This document shows positions 1 through 5,937 of a stretch of 6,034 nt of DNA, one piece after another (the stretch's first letter is position 1; every line of letters begins with the position of its first letter). The notes under the pieces were generated by a model, which saw only the letters and a program-made list of their open reading frames with translations, was not told where the DNA came from and searched no databases. Position numbers and translations under genes: made by a program. Origin of the DNA: a virus (Duplodnaviria > Heunggongvirae > Uroviricota > Caudoviricetes); the IMG/VR virus record IMGVR_UViG_2671180429_000014, one strand, 5' to 3'.

Positions 1-289
1 TCGCAACCGCATCATTCACCGCCTGCTGCAGTACATCCGGATCATAATCACGACCATCACGCGGTACCGGAATGGTCCCCACAGCGTCATCCACCATCGC
101 CTGCAGAACCGGATGTACCTCATCCACCGTCACATGCTTCTGTAATACCGCCGACAGGGAAGCCAGTTTCTCTTCAAACGCTTGTGCCTGCGCGGCCATC
201 TTCCCCTCAAATGTGCGCTGTAAATCCGCCAGCACCGTGGAGAATTCTTCGCCCAGTGCACGAATAATGGACAGTTCCCGTTCCGTCAT
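1..289 (-). CDS. Hypothetical phage protein, N-terminal 96 codons only (continues past window start); function unknown
   Basis: Manual translation of the reverse complement from ATG at 289..287 is open for 96 codons to the window edge (MTERELSIIRALGEEFSTVLADLQRTFEGKMAAQAQAFEEKLASLSAVLQKHVTVDEVHPVLQAMVDDAVGTIPVPRDGRDYDPDVLQQAVNDAVA...). Its ATG overlaps the portal stop as ATGA (plus 286..289 = tcat). Not in the ORF track, presumably because it has no stop inside the window. I do not recognise the sequence. Confidence 0.5.
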   Translation of the reverse strand, partial: MTERELSIIRALGEEFSTVLADLQRTFEGKMAAQAQAFEEKLASLSAVLQKHVTVDEVHPVLQAMVDDAVGTIPVPRDGRDYDPDVLQQAVNDAVA

Positions 290-1503
290 TTTCTCAGTAT
301 CCCCCTGAACATCGCTTTCACTGCATCATGCTCTGTTTCACTGATTGCCTTATTACCGTCAGATGCGCCGTCAGGCAGTTGTGCTGAAACTGTTTTCCCG
401 GCCGACGCGAACGGGTCCTCACGGGCATCACGACGGGACAGCGCCTCCAGACTGTAGTTCTGCTGCTGAAGATACAGTGCATCACCACCGGCAAGGGGCG
501 GCAGGTTCTCACGTTTACGGGCCTCATTGGGCGTGAGAAGCGTATTTTTCACTGATTCACCCAGTGTTTTCATGCGCCGTTCGCTGTCCATTCTCAGCAG
601 CGTGGTGACGTCAAACTCCGTGCTCTCGTTTTCCCCCGTTTCCAGCGCCTCATCCAGTAACAGCTCAATGGACTCAATCAGCGTCTGCAGACACTGGGAA
701 TAATACTGCTGCTCCAGCGCCTCCACGTTGTCACTGGAAGGCGGGTGGCCAACGCCAATCTTGTAGGCCGGGACACGGAACACCGAACAGACAATTTCAG
801 CNNNNNNNNNNNNNNNNNNNNNNNNNNNNNNNNNNNNNNNNNNNNNNCCGCCATTTCTGAAAAAATACGTCGAATTTGCCTGAATATGATGCCCCTGCAT
901 GGCGGCCAGTCCTGCGGCATACACCGGCGGCAGCCCCACAAGCGGATGAAAAAAACAGTTAAAACGGTCGTGGATCACCTCCCGGGCAGGCACCGTCACC
1001 GACTCTGTGATCCCACAGTTCCGGTCCGGCGTGATGCGGTAGAACACGTCGCCGTCATCCGCCACCAGAGGTTCAACCCGGTTCCAGTCCAGAATACGCA
1101 GTTCTTTGATCTGCCCCCGGGGGTTGCGGATTTTCAGCACCACCGTATTGCCGTGACGCAATTTGGAATTCAGCCACAGTTCAAAAAACTGGATGCGATT
1201 CTGCTGCGCATTAGGACGACGACAGAGACGGGCAGTATCTCCCTGCCGCTTTTCCCGGCGTATTCCCTGTACATCAGTCTGCATCAGGCGAAGCCGCATT
1301 TTGGCGATATCCTGGGATATCAGCGAAATGCATGAAAACACCGCGTGAAAGGACAAAACGGTTTCCGGATCGGCTTTCACACCCTGCTGCCAGGCACCGG
1401 CAAAAGGCTCAGCCACCGCCTGAAACAGGGACCGCCAGCCCACTTCTCTTACGTCACGTCCTGATTTCTGGTTTTTTCGGGTTCGCCGCAAAAGGTTCCA
1501 CAT
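286..1503 (-). CDS. Phage portal protein, HK97-like family; reading frame interrupted by a 46-nt N run
   Basis: 405-codon ORF with ATG start at 1503 and an in-frame stop 5 codons upstream, so no longer N-terminus is possible. GGAG sits 8 nt upstream of the ATG. Motifs typical of HK97-type portals: SFHAVFSCISLISQ near the N-terminus, EIVCSVFRVPAYKIG, and C-terminal LTPNEARKRENLPPLAGGD. Recognition is from memory of the family. Confidence 0.85.
   Translation of the reverse strand: MWNLLRRTRKNQKSGRDVREVGWRSLFQAVAEPFAGAWQQGVKADPETVLSFHAVFSCISLISQDIAKMRLRLMQTDVQGIRREKRQGDTARLCRRPNAQQNRIQFFELWLNSKLRHGNTVVLKIRNPRGQIKELRILDWNRVEPLVADDGDVFYRITPDRNCGITESVTVPAREVIHDRFNCFFHPLVGLPPVYAAGLAAMQGHHIQANSTYFFRNGXXXXXXXXXXXXXXXXAEIVCSVFRVPAYKIGVGHPPSSDNVEALEQQYYSQCLQTLIESIELLLDEALETGENESTEFDVTTLLRMDSERRMKTLGESVKNTLLTPNEARKRENLPPLAGGDALYLQQQNYSLEALSRRDAREDPFASAGKTVSAQLPDGASDGNKAISETEHDAVKAMFRGILRK
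802..847. other. Run of 46 N (assembly gap or masked bases) inside the portal gene
   Basis: Directly visible: c at 801, n at 802..847, ccg at 848..850. The X residues in the ORF track come from this run. Confidence 0.99.
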
Positions 1504-1678
1504 TCGCCATGCTCCGCATCACGTTTCTTTTTCTGACCTGCCGGACGTCGCGCTGTGATGTACTCCGCCTTCCCCAGGCGAACCAGCACCTCCGCACACG
1601 GCTGTGCCACATCACGGATATCCCCGGCCCGGGCATCATGCGTGCCCTGCAGATACTGGATTTTTGCCATCTGTTACT

Positions 1679-1700
1679 GCGGGAAGCTCGCGCCTCCCGC
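1679..1700 (-). other. RNA stem-loop in the capsid-portal spacer (9-bp stem including one G-U pair, GNRA-type loop GCGA); no U-tract follows
   Basis: Minus-sense sequence 5'-GCGGGAGGC GCGA GCUUCCCGC-3' (reverse complement of plus 1679..1700), beginning 15 nt after the capsid-gene stop TGA (1717..1715). Followed by AGUAACAG, so it is not a canonical intrinsic terminator. Confidence 0.4.
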
Positions 1701-1714
1701 CCTCCTCATCAGAC

Positions 1715-3652
1715 TCAGCCACCGGACGCAGTTCCGTAGTTCACACCGGTGATCACCGCCACTGCCGCGGTACGGCGACGACGCCAGTTGATCCAGCGCT
1801 CCGCACGGATGGCCACGCTGCCGGTCTGAAACATGGAGACCAGTTCCACCGGTGACGGTGTGCTGCTGTCGCTGGTCGGTTCAGACTGCATCTCCAGTGA
1901 CGCTTCACGGGACATATCCACCGCCACACCGCCGTCATCAGCCAGATAAATATCCGGTGCATTCACCAGTACCAGCTGGTCACCCACATACTGGGAGACA
2001 ATCACCGGCAGCCCCTGGAAGGTCCCGCCCAGCAAGGTCATGTCCGGATATTCCTTCTGACCCAGCGCATTTTTACGCATGGACAGCGCCAGGGCATTGG
2101 TGCTGGACATCAGCCAGACCGCACCGGTGGGCTGCAGATTTGCCGTCACAAACTGGCCAAACGCGGCCTCGGCATCCGCATCCGGGTTACCGGTTGATGC
2201 CGTGCCCTTCACATCATGGGTGATGGACGCCGGGGAGACATCCGCCACCGCCGCTTTTTTCGGGTCCACAAAGTCTGTGTCCAGACGCGCCACCACCGCT
2301 TCCGCCAGCGCATTACGGACCAGTGCATCAGCAGCCGGACTGGAAAAACGGATCAATTCTTCCGTCAGTACCGCAATGGCCGACACTTTCGCATGACTGA
2401 AGGTGATGGATTCAAAATCAAACTTCGTCAGGGGTCTGGCCTTACCCTCACCCACCCAGCCGGCAGCACCACCGGACACCTGGGCATGCACGCGGATATT
2501 GAACGGCACCTGACGAAGTGCAGGGATCCCGCCCTGACCAAATCGCCCGATAATGGTCTGCGGACGCAGGTAATCAATAAAGTCCTGCGCATATTCCTGG
2601 TATTCAGACAGGCTGCCTGCCCACTGCGGGTCCGTGGTGGTCCCTGCCCCCACCGCCGATTTCAGGACATGATGCAGACGGCTGTCATCCGGATACTGAC
2701 GACGGGCCACTTCCAGGGCTTCAGAGCGGACACCTTTAGCCGCGGCCAGTGATTTGGCAAAGCGGGCGAAACCAATCCCCTTCTCCAGTTTCTGCTCAAC
2801 ACGGATCACCGGCGCTGAAGCCACCGTGGCCACATTCCCGTTACCGGCCTGTTTCACCGGCTGTGCCGTGGCGGCCTTACTGGTTTCCAGTTCACGCAGA
2901 CGCTTCAGGTGCGCATCCACCTGACGGATTTCCGCTGCGGTGTTGTCGTAGTGCTCTTCCTCTTCCACATCCAGTGTGCGGCCTTCCTCTGCGGCTTTGT
3001 TCATGATCTCCTCAAGGGAGGCTGCCAGCGCCGCACGCTTGTTTTCAAAACTTTTAATCTGTTCACCAGTATTCATTGCTGACTTTTCCTTATGAAAAGA
3101 GGTTATTGACTGTGCCGAAGCGCCGGCAGAAGATGCGATTTTCACCACCGGTTTCCGGTTGCCGGACGCGGCAGAAAACGGGCGGTCGAAATATTTAATG
3201 GTCCGGATGGTGCATTCCGCATTCGCGGGCACGGTGACGGCAGACACCTCCATCAGCTCCCAGCGCAGAAAATGCAGTCCGCCTCCGTCCAGATAAGTGT
3301 ATTCATGGGGCCGGAAGCCCACAGAAAGCCCCCTGACCAGCCCGGTCTTAATGGCAGCCCAGGCCTCATCCAGCCGGGCTGCCATCTGGGAGGGCATCCC
3401 CGGCTCCGGCTTCACCAGCATTGCCGTGATTTCCAGCCCTTCCCTGACCCGACGCACCGTACACTGGCCTACAGGGCGGGAATGGTCATGCTGCCAGAGA
3501 AACGGGATCGTACTGCCAAACTCCGCCCCCTCCGGCTCCAGGATGTCACCATCCCGATCCGGAGAAGGCGTTGACGCAATCCCGGTGATCACCCGTTCAT
3601 CCTCACTGAAGGATTTCACCGTCAGCAGGGAACAGGCCCGTTTAAGAGTCAC
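1715..3652 (-). CDS. Fusion ORF: HK97-type prohead protease domain (about residues 1-157), Ala/Ser-rich linker, coiled-coil scaffold-like segment, major capsid domain (about residues 260-645)
   Basis: 645-codon ORF starting at GTG (3652..3650) with AGGAGG (3663..3658) 5 nt upstream. The N-terminal region carries the His and Ser motifs I associate with HK97 gp4-type proteases (LWQHDHSRPVG and RGLSVGFRP) and the PANAECT segment. Residues about 193-260 are Glu/Lys/Ala-rich and predicted coiled-coil (EQIKSFENKRAALAASLEEIMNKAAEEG...LKRLRELE), resembling a capsid delta domain. The C-terminal 385 residues are assigned as major capsid by size, position and context; this part is inference (about 0.7). 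Confidence 0.82.
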   Translation of the reverse strand: MTLKRACSLLTVKSFSEDERVITGIASTPSPDRDGDILEPEGAEFGSTIPFLWQHDHSRPVGQCTVRRVREGLEITAMLVKPEPGMPSQMAARLDEAWAAIKTGLVRGLSVGFRPHEYTYLDGGGLHFLRWELMEVSAVTVPANAECTIRTIKYFDRPFSAASGNRKPVVKIASSAGASAQSITSFHKEKSAMNTGEQIKSFENKRAALAASLEEIMNKAAEEGRTLDVEEEEHYDNTAAEIRQVDAHLKRLRELETSKAATAQPVKQAGNGNVATVASAPVIRVEQKLEKGIGFARFAKSLAAAKGVRSEALEVARRQYPDDSRLHHVLKSAVGAGTTTDPQWAGSLSEYQEYAQDFIDYLRPQTIIGRFGQGGIPALRQVPFNIRVHAQVSGGAAGWVGEGKARPLTKFDFESITFSHAKVSAIAVLTEELIRFSSPAADALVRNALAEAVVARLDTDFVDPKKAAVADVSPASITHDVKGTASTGNPDADAEAAFGQFVTANLQPTGAVWLMSSTNALALSMRKNALGQKEYPDMTLLGGTFQGLPVIVSQYVGDQLVLVNAPDIYLADDGGVAVDMSREASLEMQSEPTSDSSTPSPVELVSMFQTGSVAIRAERWINWRRRRTAAVAVITGVNYGTASGG

Positions 3653-3657
3653 ATCAG

Positions 3658-3663
3658 CCTCCT
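3658..3663 (-). promoter_or_regulatory. Shine-Dalgarno AGGAGG for the protease-capsid ORF
   Basis: Minus-sense ...UUUUUUUAUUUUC AGGAGG CUGAU GUG; 5-nt spacer to the GTG start, immediately preceded by a U-rich tract. Confidence 0.6.
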
Positions 3664-3664
3664 G

Positions 3665-3690
3665 AAAATAAAAAAACCGCCGCAGCGGTT
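3665..3690 (-). terminator. Candidate rho-independent terminator (weak) between large terminase and capsid gene, minus orientation only
   Basis: Minus-sense 5'-AACCGC UGCG GCGGUU-3' (plus 3675..3690; 6-bp stem with 4 G-C pairs, 4-nt loop) running into UUUUUUUAUUUU (plus 3665..3676). Lies 25 nt after the terL stop (3718..3716). On the plus strand the hairpin is followed by catgatgg, not a T-tract. Confidence 0.45.
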
Positions 3691-3715
3691 CATGATGGTT
3701 ACAGGGTGAGCAGGG

Positions 3716-5377
3716 TTATATGAAAAAAACCTCATACGCTTTCTTTTTCGGTTCCGGATTCAGGGACATCAGGGACACCGCATTGAAGAGCGCCATCAGC
3801 GGGTCAATTTTTCCCCGTCCGCTGGCCTGTTTGGTGATAAGAATGGCGTTACCTTTAGGCTCCACCCGGGCATTACCGACACACCAGGCCATCAGGGGCT
3901 GATCACCGTGAATCAGCACCCCTTCAGCCAGTTTGCGCTCGGTGGTTTTGATGGCCCCGCCCAGCTTCCAGCCCTGGCTTATCCCCACCACACTCTCATC
4001 GGGGATCCCGGCTTCCGCCAGTGAATCCAGAATCTGCCCCACACCTGACGGGTCAATACCGATATGATCCAGTAACTCAGCCTCATGAATACGACGCACA
4101 TACTCCGCCACTTCCGCCGTGTCATCCCCGACCCGACGGACAATCGTCATGTCTCCACAGGCCACAAAATCCTGAAACCGGGATGCCTCACTCTTCCGTC
4201 TGACCACCGCGGTTTCATGCACCCAGGCATGGCCCCAGCCCAGCCATTCGCGGGTTTCCCTGTCACGGCCAGTCACGTACATTCCCAGCAGATCATCCAG
4301 GCCCCCGCCGTCAATCCCCACCGTCACCACATCAGCGCGCTGCAGGATATCGTCCAGGCTGACGCGCCTGCCCTGCTGCTCCCAGAAATCCGCGCCCGCC
4401 CAGCGGTCAGAACGCAGGGCAAGACCGATTTCCACATTGGCGTGTTTTGACATGAAGCCACGAAATGCTTCCTCACCAGCCTCCCGGGCTTTACGGTACT
4501 CCCGGTACAGAAAGGCCTCATCCACCGAATAACCGAGATTCGGGTTAACCATGGCGAGGTTTTCCATCAGCAGGTGAGCCCCGCTTTCCACCATTTCAGG
4601 AGGATGCTCAAAAATCACCGGCAGAAAGTGCGGATCATGAATTTTGCCGTCACGGACATCCCGGGCATACTGCAGTTTCTGTCTGAACACCCCGGCGGGC
4701 GGTTCATTCGACTGGGTGGTCGTATACACCACAAACCCTTCCGGACGGGAGGCAAGCCCGCCGATGGCTTCACGTAGCATGTCTTCCGCCTTGTACTGCT
4801 TGCCAAACAGCCACAGTTCATCAATCAGTGTCCCCACGGACTTGATACCGGACACCGTATTCGGATCGGCTGCCACCACCTTCAGGGTGGTGTCCGTCAC
4901 CCGATGGGTGATGGTCCGGATATGTGTCTGCACCTGACAGAGGTCATCCAGATCATCGTCCCGTCGTACCATATCCCTGGCAGGGTTGAAGGCGTTAGCC
5001 GCCACCTCCACGGTCGGGGCCAGAATGGTGTAGCCCGCCGCCTGCCGCCAGTTCAGTAACAGCGCCGTCATCATGATCCCCGCAGCCAGCGTGGACTTAC
5101 TGTTTTTCTTGGGGATAAGGATAAACACTTCCTTGATATGGCGAACACCGGTCTGCGCATCGTAGGAGCCAAACAGGGCCGCCACCAGGTCAAACACCCA
5201 CGGTGCACAGGACTCCCCGAATGTCGGGCTACCCGGTGCATCCACAATTCGCAGTTGTTTAAAAATCGCCAGTGCATGTGCAGCCTGGTCCGGATAAATC
5301 GGAGCCGGAATAATCGACAGCCCCTTTTTCAGGCGCTCTGCCCAGTCCGGGCAGGCCGTGCTCCACACAGGTATCAT
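3716..5377 (-). CDS. terL: Terminase large subunit (lambda/HK97-like Terminase_1-type ATPase-nuclease)
   Basis: 553-codon ORF with ATG at 5377 and GAGG 7 nt upstream. Walker A-like ILIPKKNSKSTLAAG near residues 85-100, LKVVAADPNTVSG and DELWLFGK segments, and C-terminal nuclease-region motif GKIDPLMALFNAVSLM, all typical of this terminase family as I recall it. Start overlaps the terS stop as ATGA (plus 5374..5377 = tcat). Confidence 0.9.
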   Translation of the reverse strand: MIPVWSTACPDWAERLKKGLSIIPAPIYPDQAAHALAIFKQLRIVDAPGSPTFGESCAPWVFDLVAALFGSYDAQTGVRHIKEVFILIPKKNSKSTLAAGIMMTALLLNWRQAAGYTILAPTVEVAANAFNPARDMVRRDDDLDDLCQVQTHIRTITHRVTDTTLKVVAADPNTVSGIKSVGTLIDELWLFGKQYKAEDMLREAIGGLASRPEGFVVYTTTQSNEPPAGVFRQKLQYARDVRDGKIHDPHFLPVIFEHPPEMVESGAHLLMENLAMVNPNLGYSVDEAFLYREYRKAREAGEEAFRGFMSKHANVEIGLALRSDRWAGADFWEQQGRRVSLDDILQRADVVTVGIDGGGLDDLLGMYVTGRDRETREWLGWGHAWVHETAVVRRKSEASRFQDFVACGDMTIVRRVGDDTAEVAEYVRRIHEAELLDHIGIDPSGVGQILDSLAEAGIPDESVVGISQGWKLGGAIKTTERKLAEGVLIHGDQPLMAWCVGNARVEPKGNAILITKQASGRGKIDPLMALFNAVSLMSLNPEPKKKAYEVFFI

Positions 5378-5937
5378 CCGTTGCCCTCATTATCATTATT
5401 CACCACCAGGCGGGGTGGTGGTGGCACCGCAAAACGGTTAGCCGCTTTTTTCGCCGCGTCACCTTTTGCCGATTTTTTACCGGCATCCCCTTTTTTATGG
5501 TGCGTGAACTGCGCCAGCTTATAAGCCGCATCCAGCGCCAGCCTGGGGTCGGTATTAATGTTCTCCACCAGAAGACGCCCCATCGCTTTCACCGGATCGG
5601 GAAGACCATCCTCCATATATTCAATACCAGGAGACATCACCGCGGACGGTGGCATCTCCGGATTGTTTTCGTCCGGCTGTGGTATTGCAGCCGCCTCACG
5701 GCGACGGGGTTTATCCTCCTGCTCTGATTTTTTCTGCCGGTAAACAGGAACCTCATCCACCTCCACCGTCTCGCATTGTTTACGGGCTATAAACGCAAGC
5801 ACCTCCGGATCTTTTGCCAGCTGCGAGCCTTTAACCCTGGCGGTCTTCGCCGAATAACCAGCGGCAATGGCTGACGCTGTTTTGTTTTTCCCGGACATGA
5901 GCGCCAGCGCAAATTTTCGTTTTTGCGTTGTCAGCAC
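5374..5937 (-). CDS. terS: Terminase small subunit (Terminase_2/P27-like, N-terminal helix-turn-helix)
   Basis: 187-codon ORF starting at GTG (5937..5935) with GGGAGGAGG immediately upstream and an in-frame TGA 21 codons further up with no ATG between. N-terminus MLTTQKRKFALALMSGKNKTASAIAAGYSAKTARVKGSQL matches the HTH pattern of small terminases of this type. Lys/Ala-rich, low-complexity C-terminus. Sits directly upstream of terL and is translationally coupled to it. Confidence 0.75.
   Translation of the reverse strand: MLTTQKRKFALALMSGKNKTASAIAAGYSAKTARVKGSQLAKDPEVLAFIARKQCETVEVDEVPVYRQKKSEQEDKPRRREAAAIPQPDENNPEMPPSAVMSPGIEYMEDGLPDPVKAMGRLLVENINTDPRLALDAAYKLAQFTHHKKGDAGKKSAKGDAAKKAANRFAVPPPPRLVVNNDNEGNG

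Follow-up and report, generated by a model that had tools for sequence, protein, structure and literature searches.

In phages HK97 and lambda, the head genes run in the order terminase, portal, protease (with or without scaffold) and capsid. The question addressed here was why this order is broken in a 6,034-nt stretch of DNA from a tailed virus (IMG/VR record IMGVR_UViG_2671180429_000014; "the window" hereafter means this whole stretch), where the gene of the HK97-family portal follows the capsid gene. The original prediction, made from the sequence alone, explained this by a rearranged or mosaic head module. Profile matches supported its gene identifications and the order terS, terL, protease/capsid, portal, and comparison with the HK97 and lambda records bore out the difference between the window and these two phages. 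As to the cause, the order was found to be the conserved norm of a described family, in which case it is ordinary for that family, as the original prediction itself had allowed.

Identity of the window and gene order in its relatives

The window was compared with public genomes. It was matched at 99-100% nucleotide identity by Stx1a-, Stx2a- and Stx2c-converting prophages (94 phage records) and was found in 1255 of the 5426 complete E. coli genomes; a genome that carries it has two copies at the median and up to ten. The copy in E. coli O103:H2 PV16-126 is 100% identical. Named members were among 92 phage records that matched at 93-100% nucleotide identity over 99% of the query, and the capsid-portal block is present at 93-95% identity in BP-4795, 2851, 1717, YYZ-2008, JLK-2012, Lys8385Vzw, WGPS2/6/8 and phi330. 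Public phage genomes with annotation have contained both the sequence and the arrangement for some twenty years, and about one in four complete E. coli genomes carries them. Sawaravirus and Pankowvirus are example genera for the head block.

All long open reading frames (ORFs) of the window with matches to known families lie on its minus strand. In two annotated relatives (NC_049941 and NZ_AP038987), the upstream side consists of antiterminator Q, stx, the lysis genes, an HNH endonuclease, terS and terL; then follow the capsid gene, a small ORF, the portal gene, a second "portal" ORF and the genes of a gp6-like adaptor, head closure and a gp10-like protein, with the tail terminator and tail genes at the far end. 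A promoter scan of the window found zero sigma-70-like sites, which is consistent with an inner segment of a long late operon, and an Rfam scan of the window returned no family at threshold. The relative phi330 is a siphovirus that forms plaques; its head measures 55 nm and its tail 145 nm, and a virion liquid chromatography-tandem mass spectrometry dataset is available (PXD061229) (PMC12502783). Its capsid protein is 95% identical to that of the window and its gene order is the same. Because this phage forms plaques, the head module is functional.

Gene order was then examined at two sets of loci. In a capsid-seeded scan with one genome per bacterial species, 29 loci were obtained, 27 of which were informative (one lay at a contig edge and one was a partial match). 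All 27 showed terL, protease-capsid, usually a small ORF, and portal on one strand. These loci span Gamma-, Alpha- and Betaproteobacteria at a capsid identity of 31-77%: 77% in Atlantibacter and Enterobacter, about 50% in Hydrocarboniphaga and Marinobacter, 38-45% in Chelativorans, Mesorhizobium, Hyphomicrobiales and Caulobacteraceae, and 31% in Snodgrassella. An independent portal-seeded scan of IMG/VR gave 80 loci, and the 70 viral contigs with at least 2.3 kb upstream were counted; the protease-capsid gene immediately preceded the portal gene in every one of them. In 47 of the 80 loci the order is complete, with HNH at one end and the adaptor (Ad1) at the other, the remainder being truncated versions of it.

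The same order was found in the named phages BP-4795, 2851, 1717, YYZ-2008, phi330, Pseudomonas PAJU2 and Moraxella Mcat2, which represent three host genera. The closest of these, together with Stx2a_WGPS2 (Sawaravirus) and WGPS6 (Pankowvirus, as is phi330), share with the window the fused protease-capsid gene, the small ORF, the portal and the repeat protein, and show no substantial difference from it; alleles vary in the G-run that splits or fuses the portal gene and the next ORF and in the repeat copy number of that ORF. The arrangement typical of these two genera, namely terS, terL, protease-capsid fusion, small ORF, portal, repeat protein and Ad1, was recovered. PAJU2 (NC_011373, Detrevirus) carries terS, terL, a "prohead protease fused capsid protein" 48% identical to that of the window over its full length, small ORFs, portal, a 334-aa ORF, Ad1 and Hc1; it differs in host genus, in having two small ORFs between capsid and portal, and in a portal identity of only about 35%. 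Mcat2 (KR093626) and the Snodgrassella prophages share the order protease, capsid, small ORF, portal, but their protease and capsid are encoded by separate, overlapping or adjacent genes.

HK97 (gp1-gp5) has the same protein families, namely the terminase, the HK97-family portal, the S78 protease with its His and Ser, and the capsid protein with a delta domain. However, its record places the portal between terL and the protease, in the canonical order that the window lacks, with separate protease and capsid genes and without a small ORF or a repeat protein beside the portal.

The lineage in which portal follows capsid is large and old, its members have already been sequenced and classified, and within it this order is the fixed norm. 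Considering that the order is fixed across this lineage, the position of the portal gene is inherited. It is very likely, taking both statements together, that the window is the packaging and head-assembly block of long-tailed lambdoid (Stx-converting and related) E. coli prophages and that its portal position is a trait of a whole distinct, ancient lineage, and not a recent rearrangement or a mosaic joint.

Proposed products of the protease-capsid gene

The gene between terL and the portal encodes a prohead protease, a delta (scaffold) domain and an HK97-fold major capsid protein in one ORF. Peptidase_S78 (PF04586) was matched at aa 48-151 and Phage_capsid (PF05065) at aa 386-635 (E = 7.5e-15); TIGR01554 was matched by aa 204-584 (E = 1e-22, model positions 3-355), and phrog_617 was matched end to end (E = 3.8e-259). 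The protease domain is 29% identical to HK97 gp4 over 146 aa, and its score against TIGR01543 was below the cutoff (44 vs 59 bits). The histidine of its WQHD motif and the serine of its GLSVGF motif align to H65 and S114 of gp4, which form the catalytic His/Ser dyad. A separate scaffold gene is absent between terL and the adaptor gene in the annotated relatives.

Within this ORF, a putative nested gene begins with a candidate ribosome-binding site and an in-frame ATG at codon 193, after which comes MNTGEQIKSFENKRAALAASLEE; the match to the HK97-type capsid model begins 11 residues later. A start codon (ATG, GTG or TTG) with a Shine-Dalgarno (SD)-like motif, scored 5-16 nt upstream of the start codon, was found at the N-terminus of the delta domain in 25 of 25 fused homologues, down to 38% identity. 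The background in the same ORFs was much lower: such a motif precedes 9.5% of the in-frame start codons elsewhere and, with every codon position counted, 10.8%. In Moraxella Mcat2 and in Snodgrassella, where the capsid gene is separate, it begins exactly at the equivalent of codon 193. The linker residues differ among the homologues (KEK, KGN, QEG, REG, TEG), yet the AGGA/GGAG motif and the start codon are kept in all 25, which points to selection at the nucleotide level.

These findings suggest that the fusion gene may yield two products, one being the whole protease-delta-capsid chain and the other a delta-capsid chain initiated internally, and that the former may be a minor species, with the latter, started from the SD-like motif and the ATG of codon 193, as the bulk subunit. 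The two proposals taken together are put forward tentatively, at a confidence slightly short of even. A precedent is the lambda C/Nu3 arrangement, annotated in the lambda record, in which an in-frame start inside the protease gene gives a second, scaffold-type product. The analogy is one of layout: lambda has no sequence relationship to the window, its protease is of the S49 type and its portal lambda-type, gene E encodes its capsid protein separately, and its two products are established, whereas for the fusion gene they are proposed by comparison. No significant BLAST or phmmer match was obtained between the window and any lambda head protein (gpW, gpB, S49 gpC/Nu3, gpD, gpE). The canonical order was confirmed in the lambda record.

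The principal alternative is that the ORF makes one product only, the gene order again being typical of the clade. Each capsid subunit would then carry its own protease, which would be removed by autoproteolysis, and the internal Met with the purine-rich stretch before it would be left over from a capsid gene that was once separate, or would be a linker or cleavage motif. A single product agrees with the unbroken ORF of nearly all homologues, with the existence of an NCBIfam model (NF045541) for protease/capsid fusion proteins and with the Lys/Glu-Gly codons of conserved type that make up the SD-like motif. On the other hand, the retention of motif and start codon over varying linker amino acids and the analogous nested arrangement in lambda speak against this explanation, and we regard it as somewhat unlikely.

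Several points weigh against the reading that is preferred here, an inherited gene order with two capsid-gene products. Read-through of the hairpin upstream of the capsid gene and initiation at the internal start are both deduced from sequence. The SD-like motif overlaps Lys/Glu-Gly codons, and it may in part have been conserved as a linker or cleavage site, not as a ribosome-binding site. As to the order, the loci were collected by capsid or portal homology, so that they show invariance inside the lineage and not its boundary with phages of canonical order. Literature searches on gene order or protease-capsid fusion in these phages found no explicit discussion, and papers on these phages list the genes without comment on their order. 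Calling the family well described means, for this reason, relying on annotated genomes in public records and ICTV genera, not on a published analysis of gene order.

The HK97-type parts of the lineage stand in a fixed order: terS and terL are followed by the hairpin, the protease-capsid gene (usually a fusion), the small gene, the portal, the repeat protein and the adaptor, with an HNH nuclease gene just upstream and gp6/gp7/gp10-type neck genes just downstream. With the two-product reading retained, head assembly could proceed as follows. The block would be transcribed within the Q-antiterminated late operon, with read-through of the hairpin and T-tract after terL. The pairs terS/terL and portal/next gene would be translationally coupled by their ATGA overlaps. 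From the capsid ORF would come the full-length chain and probably also, in larger amount, the delta-capsid chain started at codon 193. The two would co-assemble on the portal, and the tethered protease inside the procapsid would remove itself and the delta domains.

Evidence on a rearranged or mosaic module

The rearrangement proposed in the original prediction would require that a foreign portal gene was recombined behind the capsid gene, or that the capsid block was recently transposed. Such a history might be suspected from the departure from the HK97 and lambda order, from the non-overlapping interval between the capsid and portal genes and from the hairpin after terL. However, not one of the 97 informative related loci departs from the order, nor do the named phages of three host genera.

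Base composition and codon usage are uniform as well. The guanine-cytosine (GC) content is 0.569 at 3716..5937 and 0.580 at 286..3652, and its value at third codon positions is 0.62-0.66 for terL, capsid and portal. The correlation of relative synonymous codon usage between the two parts (r = 0.95) is higher than when one gene is split in two and its halves are compared. As this composition test showed no difference, a foreign origin was rejected for either part.

To examine concordance among the head genes, pairwise protein distances were compared over 23 loci. Capsid and portal distances were concordant, with a Mantel r of 0.87 both overall and within Enterobacterales, whereas the correlations of terL with capsid or portal were lower (r = 0.54-0.78). 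In two loci, terL is 83-84% identical where that of their sisters has 66%; in Hydrocarboniphaga, terL is 68% and the capsid 50% identical; and a different terL family (22-26%) is found in Snodgrassella, Marinobacter and a Caulobacteraceae metagenome-assembled genome, the portals of which are 43-52% identical. Because the discordances all involve terL, the recombination joint in the lineage is the boundary between terL and capsid, not that between capsid and portal, and it was the only such joint detected. TerL is exchanged independently of the capsid-portal block in some lineages, a point in favor of a mosaic origin.

Downstream of the window, the head-closure, gp10-like, tail-terminator and major-tail proteins of a relative (locus L001, 16450..18359) are 44-75% identical to those of HK97, while the head proteins are 23-29% identical, a contrast that puts a module boundary close to the genes of the adaptor or head closure. 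Viewed on this larger scale, the phage is mosaic in the usual lambdoid way, with its head module joined to HK97-like neck and tail genes. Neither the terL exchange nor this head/tail mosaicism explains the position of the portal gene. Given also that a conserved gene occupies the capsid-portal interval, a recent rearrangement or mosaic join is considered very improbable.

It is hardly credible that a scaffold misjoin at the run of 46 Ns in the portal ORF created the apparent order, since both flanks of the gap are collinear at 100% with a closed E. coli chromosome, the gap stands for 193 portal bases and many complete phage genomes share the order.

The capsid-portal interval

The distance from the capsid stop to the portal start is exactly 211 nt (1504..1714), as the original prediction had stated. 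Its description of this interval as a spacer did not hold, however, because the interval contains a conserved gene of 73 codons. Its product is conserved over an N-terminal segment of some 40 aa and has a basic tail, and homologues at the same position were found in Enterobacterales, Snodgrassella, Moraxella, Marinobacter, Hydrocarboniphaga and alphaproteobacterial relatives; the gene sits between capsid and portal in nearly all relatives. The pairwise ratio of nonsynonymous to synonymous substitution rates (dN/dS) is about 0.16, and such purifying selection indicates that the ORF is a real gene.

Three of 17 homologues gave distant matches to DUF7210. A PDB search with the small ORF gave zero matches, and a word-based homologue search for it returned only close E. 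coli "hypothetical proteins". Since both are small genes directly before the portal gene, an analogy with lambda gpW was considered; the profile of the 17 homologues gave an hhalign probability of 0.06% against gpW, and the analogy was rejected at the level of sequence. In Snodgrassella, the homologue (loci L027/L028, about 10090..10455) contains a variable insertion of Ala/Asp/Gly dipeptide repeats, and its length is 67 or 121 aa depending on the strain.

The portal gene and the reading frame after it

Identification of the portal was checked on an ungapped relative, which matched PF04860 over its full length (E = 2.9e-80) and TIGR01537 portal_HK97 with E = 2.5e-108 (362 bits vs a cutoff of 112); the ORF called portal-like in the original prediction is thus a portal by profile search. 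It is 28% identical to HK97 gp3. The size of the N gap was obtained by alignment to the 100%-identical closed chromosome of E. coli O103:H2 PV16-126 and corresponds to 49 codons plus the 46 masked positions. Because the Ns stand for 193 bases, the real portal has 454 aa and not 405.

The portal stop overlaps the start of the next gene, at 289, in the sequence ATGA. In other alleles, the two ORFs are fused and read FRGDTEKMTEREL, whereas the allele of the window reads FRGILRK* / MTEREL. The difference between them is one extra G in a run of G, G6 in the fused and G5 in the split form (window 286..310; L001 14870..14900). Among E. coli-type loci, 30 were split and 16 fused. The G6 allele was mainly confined to one sequence subgroup, and the G5 allele was found in all the more divergent variants. 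Phase variation or programmed frameshifting at the G-run was considered, but with this allele distribution an inherited insertion of one nucleotide is the simpler reading. Considering that the portal and the next ORF are separate in other genera and in phi330, the split form is likely ancestral and functional.

In the ORF after the portal, a coiled coil is combined with tandem repeats of 54 aa, and the C-terminal part is rich in beta structure and has a weak CBM5/12-like match. The repeat unit of 162 nt is present in 3.3 copies at 98% identity, and copy number varies among relatives. The ORF matches positions 455-859 of phrog_2271, and the portal Pfam domain was not found in it. It is labelled as a second "portal protein" in GenBank phage records, and the Prokaryotic Genome Annotation Pipeline (PGAP) of RefSeq treats portal and ORF as one "frameshifted" pseudogene. 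For the split allele, these pseudogene calls are probably wrong. A PDB sequence search with this ORF returned only designed helical repeat proteins (E = 0.0065, which is not meaningful), and a single-sequence AlphaFold2 model of it (P0131) was unusable, with a mean predicted local distance difference test score (pLDDT) of 40.9 and a predicted template modelling score (pTM) of 0.21.

Terminase genes, hairpin and feature coordinates

The features of the window are listed in Table 1.

Table 1. Positions of genes and other features in the window (aa, amino acids; E, expectation value)
Feature	Position	Strand	Details
5' part of the gene after the portal	1..289	-	runs off the window; 407 aa in relatives (L001 14893..16116)
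HK97-family portal	286..1503	-	PF04860; window copy 405 aa, true length 454 aa
46-N run, assembly or masking gap	802..847	.	inside the portal gene; replaces 193 real bases
Conserved small gene	1449..1670	-	73 aa; phrog_829, E = 8.3e-39; overlaps the portal start
Prohead protease / delta (scaffold) domain / HK97-fold major capsid protein, one ORF	1715..3652	-	645 aa; GTG start
Putative nested gene	1715..3091	-	AAGGA ribosome-binding site 3091..3087; in-frame ATG 3076..3074 (codon 193); 453-aa delta-domain + capsid
S78 prohead serine protease domain	3194..3511	-	fusion aa 48-153; PF04586, 32.7 bits vs cutoff 21
Terminator-like hairpin	3664..3691	-	GAACCGC-TGCG-GCGGTTT (3691..3674), 7-bp GC-rich stem, then T7
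terL, large terminase subunit	3716..5377	-	553 aa; PF03354, E = 1.6e-11; PF20441, E = 6.3e-10; phrog_9, E = 4.4e-147
terS, small terminase subunit	5374..5937	-	187 aa; GTG start; PF03592, E = 1.5e-8; phrog_641, E = 2.6e-68

The terS gene is annotated as terminase small subunit in NC_049941 and NZ_AP038987, and its stop overlaps the terL start in the sequence ATGA. TerL consists of an ATPase domain (PF03354) and a nuclease domain (PF20441) and is 23% identical to HK97 gp2.

The hairpin and U-tract that the original prediction had placed after terL are present at 3691..3664; the capsid gene's ribosome-binding site, GGAGG, follows some 10 nt downstream. Terminator-like sites in the window were no commoner than in shuffled sequence (6 vs 6.0 expected), so that the scan alone proves nothing for this hairpin. 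It is, however, conserved: in relatives from Enterobacterales and Marinobacter (loci L003-L030), the arms ACCCGC and GCGGGT enclose a 4-nt loop and are followed by T6, with the capsid GGAGG about 10 nt further on. The loops vary between relatives, and one compensatory change from C-G to A-U was seen in E. coli. The position of the hairpin coincides with the terL-capsid exchange joint. The HK97 record also annotates putative terminators between its head genes. In the Q-antiterminated late operon of lambdoid phages, sites of this kind are expected to be read through.

Implications

The finding has little discovery value and is of practical value mainly for annotation. The ORF after the portal gene is not a portal, and the apparent spacer between capsid and portal is a gene. 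HK97-type phages do not all have the order terL, portal, protease, capsid, and annotation rules based on gene order should allow for this variant.

If the protease-capsid gene does give two products, it would tether a controlled number of proteases to the shell's own subunit. Together with the portal-after-capsid order, this would represent an unrecognised ancient alternative design of the HK97-type head in Alpha-, Beta- and Gammaproteobacteria. The conserved internal start offers a cheap, testable hypothesis on protease dosage in procapsid assembly.

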